Below, in pieces: positions 35,274 to 50,254 of a DNA stretch of 64,000 nucleotides (the first letter of the stretch is position 1; each line of letters starts with the position of its first letter). Location of the stretch: positions 146,719 through 210,718 of the forward strand of contig CBEUCH010000006.1 of assembly GCA_965541585.1 (NCBI GenBank). Reading direction: 5' to 3'. The notes under the pieces are model-generated. The model searched no databases. It worked only from the letters and a program-made list of their open reading frames with translations, and was not told the DNA's origin. Position numbers and translations under genes: made by a program. The stretch comes from an uncultured bacterium. GTDB taxonomy: Bacteria > Zixibacteria > MSB-5A5 > UBA10806.

Positions 35274-35834
35274 TTACAGCGATATAGCCTCGAGTTTAGT
35301 GTATTTGGGGCCGGCTGGAGAGAGGTCCGATTTGAATATGCTGACCTCATTTACGCCGAATGGCTGCGATTCATACCGGGTCTTCTCTATTTGAGCTAGA
35401 AGCTGATCGAGGCCTTTTGGGAATTTCACTCTGCCGATGGTCAAATGCGATGAAAACGGTTTGTCCCCTTTCCCGAAACCGGACTCGATAGTCGCCTGTT
35501 CCACCTGAGCGGCCAGGCTTTTGAGCCTGTCAATGCCTGAACCGGAGCCGATCCAGATCACCCGCGGCCTTCTCAGATTCGGGAAAGCCCCCAGACCTGA
35601 TAATGACAGATCGAACCCGCCGAATCCCTCGGTGTTGCCTTTTATGCTGTCGGCGAGCGACGGCACCGATTCTTCCGGGATATCGCCCAGAAACCGTAAT
35701 GTCAGGTGCAGGTTGGCCGCCTTCACCCAGCGGATATTGGCGTTGAGCTGCCGGAAGCCCGCGATCATCTTATCGATTTCCATCTTGATCTGTTGGGGAA
35801 GATCGACCGCTATGAATGTGCGTATGTCTGCCAT
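35274..35834 (-). CDS. thpR: RNA 2',3'-cyclic phosphodiesterase (2H family)
   Basis: RTFIA, two HxT motifs (HLTL, HLTI), GAFP...RVIW. Confidence 0.93.
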   Translation of the reverse strand: MADIRTFIAVDLPQQIKMEIDKMIAGFRQLNANIRWVKAANLHLTLRFLGDIPEESVPSLADSIKGNTEGFGGFDLSLSGLGAFPNLRRPRVIWIGSGSGIDRLKSLAAQVEQATIESGFGKGDKPFSSHLTIGRVKFPKGLDQLLAQIEKTRYESQPFGVNEVSIFKSDLSPAGPKYTKLEAISL

Positions 35835-35997
35835 TAGTTTAATATATACGAGGGCTTTTGAGATTCAAGGGGAAAAAGGAATAATAAAAATCTCCCATGG
35901 TACTCCTAATGCAGAAATACAACACCATCCTATCTTTGTAGGAATAACAACTTTTTTCTAAATAGGAGAGTTATTTACCGCCTGGGATGAATCGGCT

Positions 35998-36549
35998 TTA
36001 GAAGGCAGTTTTTAGAACTTCCCCATTTATCAATTCAGTTAGCCTTTTGATCCGCTTATAACGCAGGACATTTCTGTTCCAAGGTCTATCATAAACTATG
36101 ATCTCCATGTCGCTGGGAATTAGGTCGACGTAACCGAGATAATCTTCCACCAAACACCCTGGGGGAATATCAATATATTCTTTGCCATACTTGTTTACGA
36201 AATATAATTCATGATAATGAATTTTGTTCCGTGCAAGCCAATCTATCGTAACCTGTTTTAAATGAGGAGGTCTACTTGTTAATACCGAAACGATATGATG
36301 GTGGTTTAGAAATTCAGTTACCCTCGAAGCGCCAATTTCTTTTTCGATATTGGTGAATAATTCATAATCGCTATATATCGAATCCCATATTTCCCACATG
36401 TCTGATTGTGTAATTCCATATATTGTATTGAAATCGTAAACCACAAAGTCCCTGTATGTCTTCTTAATAGATAGACGTTTATTAAAATAATCTATAAATA
36501 CCTTATAGCTTTTTGACAAGCAATTATCAAGATCAATATAAATATTCAT
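35998..36549 (-). CDS. HAD-superfamily 5'(3')-nucleotidase, NT5C-like
   Basis: IDLDNCL (DxD), LTSR, VED, RPWN; ATGA overlap with the radical SAM gene stop. Confidence 0.8.
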   Translation of the reverse strand: MNIYIDLDNCLSKSYKVFIDYFNKRLSIKKTYRDFVVYDFNTIYGITQSDMWEIWDSIYSDYELFTNIEKEIGASRVTEFLNHHHIVSVLTSRPPHLKQVTIDWLARNKIHYHELYFVNKYGKEYIDIPPGCLVEDYLGYVDLIPSDMEIIVYDRPWNRNVLRYKRIKRLTELINGEVLKTAF

Positions 36550-37373
36550 CGCGTCTCTCTCGCTATGATTTGCCCACAACCCATTTCTTTTTGTACCCCG
36601 GCGCTTCGAAATACCTTACAGGGTACTTTTTCCATACAAAGTCGATTTTCCCATTTCTTAATATTCCGAGATACCAAAAACTCATCACTATTAGGATAAG
36701 AAAGCTTTATATAACCACATGCATTTATGATCTCTTTTCCTGTTAATAAAGCAGAAAGATCTTGGTCGCTGTCATTTAAACCATCTATTAAACAAATATT
36801 AAAAGAAACCCGTCTAAATGGAATCTCCTCGTAGAAGATCTTGGCTACTCTTAAAAGTCTACCGTAATCACTCGGAATGCCAAGCATCTTTTCCCTTCTA
36901 TCATTTACGGCGGTATGCAAGGATATCTGAAGTCTCACTTTCTCATTTCGTACAGCACTAATAACGTTGTGAATGTCTATTTTTGGAAGAATTGTAGAGA
37001 TACCGATTGAGATATTGTCTAATTCAGCGAGGGAGTTAATGAGCTTAAGTGTATTGTCTATGTTGCACATTGGTTCGCCAACACCCATCAAATCTATCTC
37101 AATGCGGCTATCCGACCTACGGCCGCAATTTTTATCTAAGATTTCTATTTGAGCATTAATTTCATCGATAGATAAGTTACGCAGGAATCTTGTTTTGCTA
37201 TTTGAGCAAAATACGCAATTAAAGGGGCATCCAATTTGTGATGAAACACAAAAGATATGCTGGTAGTCATCTCTATACGGTAGAAAGAGATAGGCACATT
37301 CTACTGTACCGTCGCCAAAATCCAAAGCGTATTTTCTATTAACGCCTAAACTAACCGTACTAACCACAATCAT
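36546..37373 (-). CDS. RlmN/Cfr-like radical SAM enzyme lacking the N-terminal domain (275 aa)
   Basis: FCVSSQIGCPFNCVFC, MGVGEP, ISLH, C-terminal GCGQ; ATGA overlap with dGTPase stop. Confidence 0.85.
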   Translation of the reverse strand: MIVVSTVSLGVNRKYALDFGDGTVECAYLFLPYRDDYQHIFCVSSQIGCPFNCVFCSNSKTRFLRNLSIDEINAQIEILDKNCGRRSDSRIEIDLMGVGEPMCNIDNTLKLINSLAELDNISIGISTILPKIDIHNVISAVRNEKVRLQISLHTAVNDRREKMLGIPSDYGRLLRVAKIFYEEIPFRRVSFNICLIDGLNDSDQDLSALLTGKEIINACGYIKLSYPNSDEFLVSRNIKKWENRLCMEKVPCKVFRSAGVQKEMGCGQIIARETR

Positions 37374-38497
37374 ATCTGAGCTACGGGATAAATAAACTGT
37401 TGGTATTTTCTTAGAATATAGCGATCCGTCATGCCTGATATGAAATCAATTAATAAGACACGGTCAATGTCATTATGCATCTCTAACGATCCATTTCCTT
37501 CTTTAATATAGCGTTCAAACCCCCTTTCCTCGGCACCGGCTATTTTCCGCTGGGTATAATTTAAATAGAAATCGAATACTTTTCGTACAATACTCTTTGC
37601 CTCTTCATATCTGCTTTTAATTCGTGGATCATAGTGTATTTTCTGCTCAATTATTTTAGTCCATGTCAACGCCATCAGGGCGGCACAATGAGGTTCCATT
37701 ACCAAATAGGGTTTCCCATGGTTGTCAGTAATCTGCCCGTAGTTCTCCAGGTTGTATTTGATAAATCTATTGATTATTGTTTTAAGTCGGATGTGTAATT
37801 CTGGGTCAAGGACTCCCAGAGCCTCCTTATCTAAGTCCGAAATCTTAATGTCCATATAAGACAACGTAAATTGGTTCTTATTTTTAATAGATTCCAACTC
37901 CCCTACTTTGTCTATAATATCTGACTTATCAGCGTCTTCTATATCGTGCGTAAGATATGCCATATCATCGGCGAACCTTATAACTTGACCTTCTAATGTA
38001 AGCGGTAGGTTTTTGGAAAAATCGGAATAATCAAGACGGTGTTTTCGTATACCATCAAGCGTTTCGGGCAGAAAGGATCTTCCGTATTTTGATCTAATTC
38101 CCGTAGCTATCTTATAACTATTTTCCGGGTGACTCCATTCTTTCAATGAAATGCCATGCTCCTTGACGATACTATCAAGGGCTTCCTCACCTGCATGTCC
38201 AAAGGGCGCGTGACCTATGTCGTGGCCTAGCGCCATTGCCTCAGTCAAATCAACATTCAGTTCAAGGACCCTCGCAATATTCTTAGCAATTCTCACGACC
38301 TCGAAAGTATGGGCTAAACGTGTTCGGACATGGTCATCTTGCGGTGTGGTGAAGATCTGTGATTTGTGAGCGAGTCTTCTGAAAGCATTTGAATAGATTA
38401 TTGCATCACCTTCCCTCACATATATGGATCTAACGTTATCAGCTTCGTAAAGCTCATCCCCTGTATTCGACCTGAATTCTGCGAGGTTCTTCAGCAT
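37370..38497 (-). CDS. dgt: Deoxyguanosinetriphosphate triphosphohydrolase-like HD protein (dNTPase)
   Basis: FRRLAHKSQ, RTRLAHTFEV, GHDIGHAPFGHAGE, ADDMAYLTHDIED, DFISGMTD; GGAGG RBS before ATG 38497. Confidence 0.9.
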   Translation of the reverse strand: MLKNLAEFRSNTGDELYEADNVRSIYVREGDAIIYSNAFRRLAHKSQIFTTPQDDHVRTRLAHTFEVVRIAKNIARVLELNVDLTEAMALGHDIGHAPFGHAGEEALDSIVKEHGISLKEWSHPENSYKIATGIRSKYGRSFLPETLDGIRKHRLDYSDFSKNLPLTLEGQVIRFADDMAYLTHDIEDADKSDIIDKVGELESIKNKNQFTLSYMDIKISDLDKEALGVLDPELHIRLKTIINRFIKYNLENYGQITDNHGKPYLVMEPHCAALMALTWTKIIEQKIHYDPRIKSRYEEAKSIVRKVFDFYLNYTQRKIAGAEERGFERYIKEGNGSLEMHNDIDRVLLIDFISGMTDRYILRKYQQFIYPVAQI

Positions 38498-38575
38498 ACA
38501 ATCCTCCACCAGGCGTAAATAAGGAAATCTAAAGCCCGGGCATTTCGCAGGAATTACGATTGGTTCTTCCTTTAC

Positions 38576-38604
38576 AATATAAAGAGCTATCTCTGCTTTT
38601 TCAA
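38576..38604 (-). promoter_or_regulatory. Putative sigma-70 promoter of the dGTPase operon
   Basis: Minus strand TTGAAA-17 nt-TATATT. Confidence 0.55.
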
Positions 38605-38680
38605 TAGCAATCTTTCATCTCGTTACCAAGCGGGGGCCTATACCCAGTATTGAAATCGCCGAACTATATAGAGTGGGTTC

Positions 38681-38720
38681 TCATATCCTCGGTGGCTTTA
38701 TCCCCAGTTTACGCAGGTAA
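38681..38720 (-). repeat. 40-bp duplicate of the 3' end of the DinB-family gene (40893-40932)
   Basis: 37 of 40 nt identical; encodes YLRKLGIKPPRI* versus YLRILGIKPPRI*. Confidence 0.85.
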
Positions 38721-38777
38721 GCGTGCATCAAACTACTCAACAGAAATTGACAGCCGTTCGAGATGCCGGTGCCTTGA

Positions 38778-39536
38778 TCAGAAATCAATGTCTGTAAAAG
38801 CAGTGTTATGTGTGAAGCTGACATCCAGGCCTTCCGCCATGCCGGTAGCCATCACCCGCCAGGCATGATCGATCGGCGGCGCGTCGTACCTCCCGTTACC
38901 GTTGAGATCGGCGTAGAAATCGATCTGATATTGAGCGCCGCTCTGGATGATATCCCTGATCTCGATATCGAAATCGTGGTTGGGGATGGTATCGAGGCGA
39001 TACTGCCCCACGGTCCTTCCCGATTCGGTGTGGATAACCTTCATCTCGAAAAGCTGCCCCAAATGGGGATTAAACCCGAATAGATCCAGGCGGAATTCAG
39101 AACCAAGATCGGAGTACGAAGGTTCATCGATATCCGTGAAATCTGTATTATGCGAGAACGTTACCTCGACTTCGCCGGTCGCAGGAAGGTCTAATCTCCA
39201 GGCGTGGTCTTCCGGCGGAGGATCGTAGGAATCAGTCATGTTGAGGTCCGCGAAGAAATCAAGCCTGTGGGGCCCCTCGGGCACCGATGATTTCATGACC
39301 ATATCGATCTCTGCCGATGGAAGAGGATCGAGAATAACTTGAGCCTGCAGTTGGTTTCCGCTGGAAACTACTCTAAGTTCCACCAACTGGCCCACATGCG
39401 GAGACATATCCTGTAGATGCAGGGTCATGTCCCGGTTATCAGACGAAGGGGGTGGGGGCTGGGTCGTATTATTATCGTCACAGGCAACGATTACGAGCAA
39501 TAAAGACATTGAAAGACCAAACATCACGTTTTTCAT
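38778..39536 (-). CDS. Lipoprotein with two tandem homologous domains
   Basis: Lipobox VIVAC; repeats PHVGQLVEL...DFFADLN...DHAWR...HNTDFTDI and PHLGQLFEM...DFYADLN...DHAWR...HNTAFTDI. Confidence 0.8.
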   Translation of the reverse strand: MKNVMFGLSMSLLLVIVACDDNNTTQPPPPSSDNRDMTLHLQDMSPHVGQLVELRVVSSGNQLQAQVILDPLPSAEIDMVMKSSVPEGPHRLDFFADLNMTDSYDPPPEDHAWRLDLPATGEVEVTFSHNTDFTDIDEPSYSDLGSEFRLDLFGFNPHLGQLFEMKVIHTESGRTVGQYRLDTIPNHDFDIEIRDIIQSGAQYQIDFYADLNGNGRYDAPPIDHAWRVMATGMAEGLDVSFTHNTAFTDIDF

Positions 39537-39715
39537 AAAACCTCTCTTGTTACAGTAAGCAAATCCTTCGTTTTCCACTTTTTTACAGCAGTAAAAGCCT
39601 GCCGGTTTCCCTAATCGAGAGTGATAACCATTTTCAATATATGAAAGTTCCCGGCCCGGTAAACGAAAAGGTTGATTCTCAATATGAGATGCCGTCCGAA
39701 ATTTCGTTTAGCGAC

Positions 39716-40735
39716 TTATTTTAAATCAGTATCAGTATCGCGGAAGACGTTGCTTACGCGTAAAAGGCTGTCAAGATAACCGGCGTTCTCCGAAACATGC
39801 CGCAGCTTGTCTTCGCCATACCCCCGTTCGACCGCGGCCGCCGCCACGCGTCCCTGATTATTGTAGAGGACATCGGGTATATAGTTCGATAAAGAATCAT
39901 CGTACGCCTCTAAAGGCGATATGATTTCCCAACCCTTCTTCCGCAGAAAATTAACCAGATCATCGATGTACAAAGCGGCCAGGTCATTTTCGTGCAGTAA
40001 TAAAACATGATTCGGCGAATAGCCGAGCGCGTCACGGGCCATTTTATCGTAGAATTGGATAGCGCCCCATAACATATCGACATAGATTTTCCCGAGAGCC
40101 ACGGTATCGATCTCCATACCGTTCTCGGCCGCGTCCCGGCATTTCCGGTCGATGTACCAGTCCCAGGTGTCTATAGTAACGTAGCCATTGCGATATCCGA
40201 GCGAATCCAGAGCTTGACGTATACTGTCTCTCACCGGTACCGTCCTGCCCTCGTCAAGCATAGGATAACGGAACAGTGGCACAAATGTCGAGAATTGCCG
40301 CAGGCTGTCATCGGCACCGCGAATATCCGAAATATACGATACACATCCTGAATCATCGGGTCGACGATGAGAATGACTGTGGTTGCCCAGAAGATGGCCG
40401 GCTTTTGCGTATCGCTCAAGACGATTATGGCCATCATTGTAGGGAAGATTTTCCGTAATACAATAAAAAATCACCGACGGTACAGCAACATCATTTAGTT
40501 GTCTGATAAATCTATCAGTCCGCTTCGCCCCACCGAAAAAAGCGCCCTTGCCGCTGGGAGCGTCATCGAAGCTCAAACAAAGGCGGCCGATCGGAGGTTC
40601 TTCAGTAGAGCCTTTTCCGGGCTTTTTATCTTCTCCCAGGGCTGACTGAAATTCTCCCGCCGGGGAGGCAATTATTACCATTAAGCAAAACAGGATCAAA
40701 CACATGTTTAGTCCCGTCAGTCTGGTATGTGTCAT
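39716..40735 (-). CDS. Polysaccharide deacetylase family protein, exported
   Basis: SFDDAP, GNHSHSH, FRYP, DW, LLLH NodB motifs. Confidence 0.88.
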   Translation of the reverse strand: MTHTRLTGLNMCLILFCLMVIIASPAGEFQSALGEDKKPGKGSTEEPPIGRLCLSFDDAPSGKGAFFGGAKRTDRFIRQLNDVAVPSVIFYCITENLPYNDGHNRLERYAKAGHLLGNHSHSHRRPDDSGCVSYISDIRGADDSLRQFSTFVPLFRYPMLDEGRTVPVRDSIRQALDSLGYRNGYVTIDTWDWYIDRKCRDAAENGMEIDTVALGKIYVDMLWGAIQFYDKMARDALGYSPNHVLLLHENDLAALYIDDLVNFLRKKGWEIISPLEAYDDSLSNYIPDVLYNNQGRVAAAAVERGYGEDKLRHVSENAGYLDSLLRVSNVFRDTDTDLK

Positions 40736-40818
40736 CTATCCCGGATTGTCACTATATTATCATCCTTGTGGGTACCGTCTGGTTTCTCTGAAGTAGTACT
40801 ATCGTAACTGACGGATTC

Positions 40819-40847
40819 GGTGTCGAGTGCAGAGACTCGACACCACC
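40819..40847. repeat. REP-like palindrome
   Basis: GGTGTCGAGT-GCAGAG-ACTCGACACC followed by ACC. Confidence 0.55.
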
Positions 40848-40892
40848 AAGATTGTCATCATGTTATCATCCTAGTGCACGCCATTTTTCGTA

Positions 40893-41360
40893 TCATATCC
40901 TCGGTGGCTTAATCCCCAGTATGCGCAGGTAATGGTTTATCTGGCTGCGGTGGTGAATATCGTGTTCGAAGAGATGCAGGAATATCCAGTAGCCGGTAAC
41001 CACATTGTCACGACCGAATTTGCTCATATCGTATTTGCCCTTCAGCACCTTCGGCGCACGGGCGAAGAAATCGCCCAGCCGTTTCCAGTGCGAATCGAGA
41101 AGGCCGGCGATCTCCGGTTTCGGCAGGCTGGGGCAGGGCGTGTAATCAGTATATTCCTTACCATTGATAATTGCGCTGAGCCACCAGTCGGAGCCCTCGG
41201 CGATATGCATGAAGATATTACCAAGCGAGATCATCTTCTCCGCCGGCGCCCAGTCGAGTTTGTCATCAGGTGTAATTTCAAGCGCTTTCATAAGTGGAGG
41301 TTTGATCTCGTCGAACCAGAATTTTGTCAGCGTATTGAGTTCGAATACGTTTTCAGGCAT
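40893..41360 (-). CDS. DinB family metalloprotein
   Basis: HIA, HDIHHRSQI..YLR..GI.PP. Confidence 0.88.
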   Translation of the reverse strand: MPENVFELNTLTKFWFDEIKPPLMKALEITPDDKLDWAPAEKMISLGNIFMHIAEGSDWWLSAIINGKEYTDYTPCPSLPKPEIAGLLDSHWKRLGDFFARAPKVLKGKYDMSKFGRDNVVTGYWIFLHLFEHDIHHRSQINHYLRILGIKPPRI

Positions 41361-49393: not shown

Positions 49394-50254
49394 ATGTGTA
49401 CAGCAGATAAAAAATTCTGTAAATGTGGGAGTGAAAAACCATATGTAGATTGTTGCGAACCGTATTATTCTATGTTGGATCTTAACAGTGATGAATTGGA
49501 ACCACTATTAATTGATTGGAGATTACGCTATGGCTTTGCGACTTGCGAAGGATTTCACAAGAGAGCGTCAACATTTTCCTTTAGGATTTCCATATATCTT
49601 GACTCTATTATAAATAAGTATTTGCCCTTAGGATACTTAGAGAATCGTGATGATGATACTGATGAAACAATAATATCCATAAAACATAATATCTTATTAG
49701 GCCTGTTTGGAGCTTATTCCTGCCTTTCTGAAGGTCTTTTTATTCAAAGCGGTATATTGTTGCGTTCTGTAGTTGAGGACTGTTTTATATTAGTAGATAT
49801 TTTTCTAAATCCGGATCAACTTAGAAGAGTCCTAGACAATAAGTATTCAACCAGCAAATTGCTGTCTCGCATAAAAAATGAAATTCCTGCAGAATTAATT
49901 GATTATTATGGTTATTTTTCGGCGAACTTCTCTCATTTTGGAGCAGTCCATCCTGCTCCATATAGGCCCAGAGCGTGTTACGAGGACAATTGGGTTCTTG
50001 TTCTTGGAATAGAAAATCTAATTCGAGCAATCCTTACATTTCATATATCATTAGAGAGGATATATTTTAAACAAACGCGGGATCCATTTTTTTGGGAAAA
50101 AGATGTTCATAATAATCGATTATGTTTTAATGGTGATAATATTGTCTACGATTGGGTAAATAAATTAATAAAGGAATTACAAAAATCTTTCCCCCCAGAT
50201 GAGCGAAAAAATGGATTTGAATATACCGAGAAAAGTTATAAACTCAAGAAATAG
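49394..50254 (+). CDS. SEC-C motif protein with helical (HEPN/DUF5677-like) domain; AT-rich
   Basis: CKCGSEKPYVDCC SEC-C motif; ILLRSVVE and YGYFSANFSH; visibly low GC. Confidence 0.7.
   Translation: MCTADKKFCKCGSEKPYVDCCEPYYSMLDLNSDELEPLLIDWRLRYGFATCEGFHKRASTFSFRISIYLDSIINKYLPLGYLENRDDDTDETIISIKHNILLGLFGAYSCLSEGLFIQSGILLRSVVEDCFILVDIFLNPDQLRRVLDNKYSTSKLLSRIKNEIPAELIDYYGYFSANFSHFGAVHPAPYRPRACYEDNWVLVLGIENLIRAILTFHISLERIYFKQTRDPFFWEKDVHNNRLCFNGDNIVYDWVNKLIKELQKSFPPDERKNGFEYTEKSYKLKK

Follow-up and report, generated by a model that had tools for sequence, protein, structure and literature searches.

A short RlmN/Cfr-type radical SAM enzyme in an acquired cassette with an HD dGTPase-like protein and an NT5C-family nucleotidase: a candidate nucleotide-signalling system in an uncultured member of the Zixibacteria

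A 64,000-nucleotide (nt) stretch of an uncultured bacterium of the Zixibacteria (MSB-5A5; UBA10806), comprising positions 146,719 to 210,718 of contig CBEUCH010000006.1 in assembly GCA_965541585.1 and hereafter called the window, contains a three-gene cassette encoding an HD dGTPase-like protein, a short relative of RlmN and Cfr, which are radical S-adenosylmethionine (SAM) methyltransferases (the short relative is hereafter the methylase), and an NT5C-family HAD 5'-(deoxy)nucleotidase. The cassette is horizontally acquired and accessory, and its combination of genes is undescribed within the literature searched (mainly titles and the beginnings of abstracts, with few subscription papers and no supplements), which held no description of a short RlmN with a dGTPase. 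The cassette may, tentatively, act against phages through a methylated-nucleotide signal to the dGTPase, a reading placed ahead of a toxic-product pathway, RNA methylation, a non-defence role and DNA base replacement. Its features, with protein lengths in amino acids (aa), are as follows.

37370..38497, reverse strand: HD dGTPase-like gene, 375 aa, first of the trio; Pfam HD and HD_assoc above cut-off
36546..37373, reverse strand: short RlmN/Cfr-type radical SAM gene, 275 aa; Pfam Radical_SAM above cut-off
35998..36549, reverse strand: NT5C-family HAD 5'-(deoxy)nucleotidase gene, 183 aa; PF06941 at 29 bits, cut-off 24.8
38503..38507, reverse strand: Shine-Dalgarno sequence GGAGG, 5 nt ahead of the dGTPase ATG at 38497
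38576..38604, reverse strand: sigma-70-like promoter match TTGAAA-17-TATATT, with 10 of 12 consensus letters and among the four best of 15 sites

An earlier, sequence-only reading had described three genes chained by two ATGA overlaps, more AT-rich than their surroundings and directly upstream of thpR-recA-recX, and all of this was borne out by the coordinates: the genes are intact, both junctions are ATGA stop/start overlaps, and thpR, recA and recX lie downstream (recA and recX named from sequence, not by family search). The G+C (GC) content is 0.41 for the dGTPase gene, 0.38 for the methylase gene and 0.34 for the NT5C gene, compared with 0.49-0.57 in the five flanking genes, and when the genome is cut into 1389 windows of 2.5 kb, 9 have a value as low as that of the whole trio (0.383). 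The dGTPase ATG at 38497 agrees with the start of a 374-aa orthologue; the GTG at 38509 given by the open reading frame finder would lengthen the protein by 4 aa. The same reading had assigned the cassette a promoter of its own, of which the TTGAAA-17-TATATT match is indeed present and well placed, 79 nt ahead of the ATG, but promoter-like sites in this region are not above chance frequency (15, vs 11.5 +/- 3.6 in shuffles). Another promoter-like match, TTGAAT-16-TATATT, lies ahead of thpR at 35868-35841, and nothing resembling a terminator was found from the end of the cassette to thpR.

Separate canonical copies of rlmN and dgt, whose presence in the genome the sequence-only reading had left to be checked, were both found: a full-length RlmN (C5; TIGR00048, 391.6 bits) and a dGTPase (C30), each of genome-average GC content and above its NCBIfam cut-off, which rules out the trio members as the sole housekeeping copies. 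A scan of the contig set genome_contigs returned one locus, L023, a canonical RlmN. With the methylase as query, 285 genomes of the phylum gave a single match at E<=1e-30, the methylase itself, and the other 284 gave none. A phylum search with a broad profile (A3) had no discrimination, canonical RlmN outscoring the query itself, and so says nothing about absence. The cassette occupies a variable slot upstream of thpR (window 35834-41360): at the loci of seven relatives the DNA upstream of thpR is unlike the cassette, and in two of the seven, a gene found 5 kb off in the window adjoins thpR. In one public sequencing run, a close relative has contigs that match the two flanks and pass into unlike DNA at 35822 and 38777, and in two runs the contigs of close relatives cover the flanks but not the cassette, with none bridging the cassette site. 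At the cassette borders there was no integrase, tRNA or Rfam match, and the search for terminal repeats turned up nothing more than short matches in two copies.

The methylase retains all the expected motifs (E25, C42, C49xxxC53xxC56, M96GVGEP and C266), and in alignment E25, C42, M96 and C266 correspond to E105, C118, M176 and C355 of RlmN, which together with the cluster cysteines carry the methylation mechanism according to the accessible part of a review (PMC9692996). A class A residue test thus found CxxxCxxC, two further cysteines and the equivalents of E105 and M176. In the predicted structure (predicted local distance difference test score 94) the top ten Foldseek rows were all RlmN-type, with template modelling (TM) scores of 0.80-0.84, vs 0.54-0.60 for viperin rows, and by its conserved residues and modelled fold the enzyme is predicted to be catalytically competent. 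The N-terminal helical domain of RlmN (PF21016, RlmN_N) had no Pfam match in the methylase, the cluster motif lies at residue 49 vs about 100-125 in full-length proteins, and scores were under the cut-offs for RlmN (TIGR00048, 114.9 bits against 290) and Cfr (TIGR04432 and NF000424, 68.6 and 74.1 bits against 550 and 530). The initial description of the radical SAM protein therefore stood as to its cluster motif, both class A cysteines, MGxGEP and missing domain, but its term 'truncated' gives way to 'naturally short'. A pseudogene or truncated RlmN is ruled out, as orthologues are equal in length and start and 77 of the 153 proteins in the methylase tree (150 from a profile search plus three additions) are short, with the cluster motif before residue 75. 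These short proteins fall mostly outside the full-length RlmN group, with a few inside it. As judged from sequence, the methylase belongs to a wide family naturally without the N-terminal domain, and many proteins automatically annotated as '23S rRNA (adenine2503-C2)-methyltransferase' are probably not RlmN.

The substrate pocket, as read from alignments, is changed and less basic than that of RlmN. Median core net charge was +1 for 74 short proteins vs +9 for 73 full-length ones, a comparison from which rows longer than 420 aa, five short ones among them, were left out and whose significance is confounded by kinship and GC content. Fifteen methylases share an added LxYR loop (R34 in the window methylase), and this LxYR group differs from 77 full-length rows by R (97%) to F (100%) at position 255, as well as by K in place of N at 223, N in place of E at 192, S in place of I at 225 and Q in place of A at 149. 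E92 and D94 of the window methylase occupy the positions of N172 and V174 in RlmN and of S151 and S153 in Cfr, and the positions near the target base agree with neither enzyme as described in the portion of PMC12887959 available, so neither C2 nor C8 specificity can be assigned. Taken with its gene partners, the methylase probably acts on a free nucleotide rather than on rRNA or tRNA. The alternative, that it methylates rRNA, tRNA or phage RNA, protecting or reprogramming translation while co-packaged with a dNTP-depleting pair (dNTP, deoxynucleoside triphosphate), appears unlikely. It would agree with the RlmN fold and with phage homologues lying among tRNA genes, and a phage RlmN/Cfr homologue reportedly acts on rRNA, a report that the literature search did not find. 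The characterised class A enzymes covered in the accessible part of the review all act on RNA (PMC9692996), and the core domain contains most of the basic residues through which Cfr is modelled to contact rRNA, as far as the available text shows (PMC12887959). However, the N-terminal domain, the basic charge and the arginine of 97% of full-length proteins have all been lost, and the dGTPase fusion and the pairings with enzymes acting on deoxynucleoside monophosphates (dNMPs) or with GAF proteins described below need a small-molecule link.

The dGTPase keeps H63, H92-D93, D177, the H101/E104 dyad and the deoxyribose residues Q47, Y181 and D185; these metal ligands, the dyad and the deoxyribose residues agree with E. 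coli dGTPase in the part of PMC6511015 consulted, and TIGR01353 is matched at 166.3 bits (cut-off 152.35). The alignment to the E. coli enzyme, whose guanine-selecting residues are E400, R433 and R442, covers only the N-terminal part. The window protein has no N-terminal helix, and the last arginine of its DRDR motif is replaced (A32). It groups with four other accessory dGTPases (P0012, P0013, P0138 and that of locus L053; P0013 included without gene context) in one branch, with Shimodaira-Hasegawa-like approximate likelihood ratio test support of 99 in a tree of 62 rows and 98 in a quick mixture-model tree of 46 rows, after removal of 13 and then of further rows that were near-duplicates, had doubtful starts or formed long branches. 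Two of the five were found via the methylase and not via dGTPase similarity. All five lack the last DRDR arginine, which is kept in 117 of 117 others (of 120 matches), and P0138 and L053 have glycine at the deoxyribose-stacking tyrosine of E. coli dGTPase. Complex prediction for dGTPase and methylase (score 0.01) gave no answer either way.

The best non-self matches of all three proteins (68% dGTPase, 54% methylase, 58% NT5C) come from one 3737-bp contig labelled Candidatus Bathyarchaeota, on which the homologues have consecutive accessions in the same gene order as the window trio; the order of the trio is thus kept on a second contig, and conservation of this synteny was a check that the sequence-only reading had asked for. 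The order is known from the accessions, not from DNA, and the label on so short a contig of a metagenome-assembled genome may be wrong. The methylase there has 202 aa, and a cluster mate from another assembly has 275 aa. The methylase-dGTPase link recurs at about 30% identity in P0138, a fusion of a short LxYR methylase with a dGTPase, and in the operon L053 (partial duplicate L101), where overlap-coupled genes of lower GC content than their flanks encode a dGTPase, a methylase and a 128-aa protein matching the nucleoside 2-deoxyribosyltransferase (NDT) family (E 3e-10). A metagenome motif scan yielded 76 loci, of which 28 carry a methylase of the short family; the scan pattern was taken from the window's branch, so these 28 are not a family-wide sample. 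Locus L068 carries the third-closest methylase (39%) and, 68 nt downstream of it, a gene for a YfbR 5'-deoxynucleotidase; neither this locus nor the cassette locus has a tRNA. In L030, a 172-aa frame upstream is weakly like the C-terminus of the accessory dGTPases (E 0.002, best non-self of 2345 frames) and a second HD protein lies downstream. Across the six LxYR contexts including the window, a dGTPase is present in four, a possible remnant in one and none visible in one, with some deoxynucleotide hydrolase in all six.

The gene after the methylase is NT5C in two contexts, YfbR in L068 and NDT-like in L053, that is, the third gene swaps among deoxynucleotide enzymes that appear by sequence to be unrelated; YfbR acts on dNMPs according to the section of PMC8177086 seen. 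The window NT5C protein has its DxD at D6-x-D8 and no Protein Data Bank (PDB) relative by sequence, and its orthologue matches PF06941 at 37.7 bits. A search for DUF7768 found it in 0 of 151 genomes and in none of the controls either, and is hence uninformative. Because of the fusion, the second operon and the non-homologous replacement of the third gene, the shared nucleotide pathway first proposed from the sequence is supported.

In the proposed mechanism, the methylase would add a methyl group to an sp2 base carbon of a free (deoxy)nucleotide, most likely purine C8 or C2, by the two-cysteine mechanism of RlmN, and the product would regulate the HD dNTP triphosphohydrolase, which by its residues is intact in catalysis and specific for deoxynucleotides, probably at a remodelled N-terminal inter-subunit pocket, switching dNTP depletion on or holding it back by analogy with Clover. 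NT5C may then dephosphorylate the methylated monophosphate or ordinary dNMPs, resetting the signal or completing the depletion, a role suggested by its family and by its replacement with other dNMP or deoxynucleoside enzymes. The Clover protein CloA binds its inhibitory signal through R29, R34 and R38, as given in the part of a preprint consulted (bioRxiv 10.1101/2025.07.09.663793). Residues 23-60 of the window dGTPase match residues 31-68 of a PDB chain taken as CloA without gaps, and CloA R29, R34 and R38 would correspond to R23, R28 and A32 if the numbering offset is two, so that in this mapping the arginine triad of the p3diT pocket lacks its third member. Both systems have an HD dNTPase (HD motif, H/E dyad) beside an enzyme that could produce a nucleotide ligand, and three of four checked pocket positions agree (CloA R29, R34 and D37 with R23, R28 and D31). 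In contrast to Clover, the cassette has no adjoining Pol-beta nucleotidyltransferase CloB, its partners being a radical SAM methylase and a third hydrolase, NT5C; the position of CloA R38 is alanine; and the HD protein, shorter by about 100 aa, has only weak similarity to the CloA-assigned chain (E 3e-11). By analogy the cassette would work most like Clover while standing outside its membership.

The closest rival is possible but rather doubtful: a C-methylated dNTP made by the methylase would poison viral polymerases in the manner of viperins, or an antimetabolite would be made as by OxsA/OxsB, with the HD and HAD enzymes stripping its phosphates to protect the cell or to release the methylated deoxynucleoside or base. 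Two phosphatases converging on one nucleoside, the NDT-like and YfbR replacements, the changed substrate suggested by glycine for the stacking tyrosine in two accessory HD enzymes, and other short methylases fused to NUDIX or DUF2608 or placed in biosynthesis-like clusters would all suit such a pathway, but the window HD enzyme keeps the ordinary dGTPase deoxyribose residues, the cassette has no transporter, and the membrane-GAF partner of a related branch suits signalling better. Viperins make antiviral 3'-deoxy-3',4'-didehydro nucleoside triphosphates by sugar dehydration, whereas class A enzymes methylate a base via two cysteines. The window methylase resembles viperins as a radical SAM protein for which a defensive action on a free nucleotide is proposed, but it belongs to another subfamily (TM about 0.6 vs 0.8 for RlmN) and has the class A cysteine pair, and it is not a viperin by either measure. 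OxsB is cobalamin-dependent, and no B12-binding domain was found in the 275-aa methylase, which excludes it from the OxsAB type. The oxetanocin pathway nevertheless provides a precedent, since a radical SAM enzyme and an HD phosphohydrolase there release a modified nucleoside (PMC8177086, as far as seen), although OxsA is YfbR-like and the cassette HD enzyme is dGTPase-type.

In 12 of the 28 metagenome loci (10 distinct aligned), the methylase belongs to a related branch and the next gene encodes a 330-aa protein that combines hydrophobic helices with a C-terminal GAF domain:

L031:2097-3996; L029:5683-7628; L093:23-2009; nine more loci: methylase and GAF module

The GAF assignment rests on a Z score of 12.7 and a root-mean-square deviation of 3.7 A over 161 residues; the Foldseek rows are all weak (E>=0.01) but of the same fold. 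The N-terminal hydrophobic helices have low model confidence and suggest a membrane location, and the protein had no family or PADLOC match of weight. This pair is a candidate signal-effector system of its own, with the layout of a small-molecule synthase and a sensor-effector. Elsewhere, short methylases are fused to NUDIX (P0222, label Heimdallarchaeaceae) or DUF2608 (P0261, label Chlamydiales), or lie in biosynthesis-like clusters (L058:822-9793, L075, L097:5608-10373 and L052:1191-7576) that include two Trp/Tyr-tRNA-synthetase-like genes in L058 (one also in L075), a thiamine pyrophosphate enzyme in L097 and further radical SAM enzymes in L052.

First viral scans gave only weak or full-length matches except for L022, and when plasmids and phages were searched with the methylase and with the fusion as queries, no record spanned both domains. 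Two marine T4-like viral contigs carry a full-length RlmN of 364 aa (L016:4697-5791 and L017:5770-6864). In three of nine distinct viral loci, a short methylase lies near a nicotinamide/nicotinate phosphoribosyltransferase gene of nicotinamide adenine dinucleotide (NAD) salvage:

L026:3185-5882; L185:8459-10025; L188:4472-8085: short methylase by an NAD-salvage gene

L185 and L186 have two different short methylases and an ADP-ribosylglycohydrolase (by annotation or similarity). A base-replacement role, in which the methylase would supply a modified dNTP for DNA and the HD and HAD enzymes would clear away its canonical counterpart, by analogy with phages of modified genome such as S-2L, is very improbable. 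A synthase with a canonical-dNTP hydrolase and a dNMP phosphatase would resemble the design of such phages, and the nearest ESM Atlas clusters of the methylase and of NT5C are largely viral; however, the dGTPase-linked contexts are cellular, the cassette has no kinase or polymerase, none of 48 viral dGTPase loci holds a short methylase, and the viral methylase loci have no dGTPase or NT5C match.

An anti-phage role is, on balance, slightly favoured. The defence system suggested by the sequence-only reading remains a candidate: it agrees with the sporadic, acquired nature of the cassette, and no recognised defence gene flanks the cassette in the window. L030, beside QatA- and CapP-like genes, is the sole one of the five other contexts adjoining a recognised defence gene. 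The PADLOC dGTPase match was rejected as evidence, being uninformative for defence because the housekeeping copy outscores the cassette copy (344 vs 189 bits). Like the stand-alone anti-phage dGTPases (NF041026, PADLOC), the cassette enzyme is a homologous HD triphosphohydrolase with intact catalytic residues; unlike them, it derives in the tree from the short housekeeping-type group and is linked to a methylase partner. In a survey of dGTPase fusions, neither 'methyltransferase' nor 'nucleotidase' occurs in the accessible text (PMC13519002). A metabolic or house-cleaning cassette without a defence role, or a loose association without one pathway, is improbable: the window has no defence neighbours and the contexts are few, but the overlap coupling and the fusion, a dGTPase clade of its own, and the patchy occurrence and low GC content of the cassette all speak against it.

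Several observations weigh against a signal-driven anti-phage cassette. The PADLOC order just given favours the housekeeping dGTPase, the NF041026 score (148.4 bits) is far under its cut-off of 400, and no recognised defence genes, integrase or terminal repeats surround the cassette. Only five other contexts are known, three of them on short contigs, and in L068 there is no dGTPase in the 372 bp upstream and yfbR is not overlap-coupled. A dGTPase-type gene is absent from 33 of 35 short-methylase loci (near-duplicates and short contigs included), so the link is limited to a sub-group, one delimited after the contexts were known. The dGTPase-linked methylases fall on three separate, poorly resolved branches rather than in a demonstrated single clade, the tie of the window's branch to the GAF-linked branch is weak (0.787), and the short homologues found in phages have neither dGTPase nor NT5C beside them, one lying among tRNA genes. 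The branches of the accessory dGTPases are long, and long-branch attraction may inflate their clade. Lastly, the lost phosphate-binding arginine may mean a dead regulatory pocket rather than a re-tuned one.

Outside the cassette, an AT-rich gene in the window (49394-50254; GC 0.34, 286 aa, cysteine-rich N-terminus) lies right after a uvrA-like gene of 951 aa, named from sequence without a family search.

A broader reading, put forward as speculative and somewhat doubtful, is that short RlmN-like enzymes are a widespread and so far unrecognised family of second-messenger synthases making C-methylated nucleotides, with interchangeable readers (the dNTPase clade, the membrane-GAF protein) and erasers (NT5C, YfbR or NDT-like), and that phage copies beside NAD-salvage genes are the counter-defence side. 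If true, such nucleotides would be immune signals of a new class, and no earlier class A radical SAM methylase acting on a free nucleotide is described in the literature searched. The methylase shares with RlmN and Cfr the fold and the equivalents of E105, C118, CxxxCxxC, M176 and C355, but differs in having no N-terminal domain, a neutral charge, another pocket and an accessory, operonic setting. RlmN and Cfr act on RNA, as stated in the accessible part of PMC9692996, and a compact methylase wired to dNTP hydrolases would extend class A chemistry to free nucleotides. The three proteins of the cassette are small and soluble and their catalytic residues are clear, making it tractable by standard assays; it could bring to light an immune signal or an antiviral nucleotide of a new kind, and it bears on how cells restrain toxic dNTPases.

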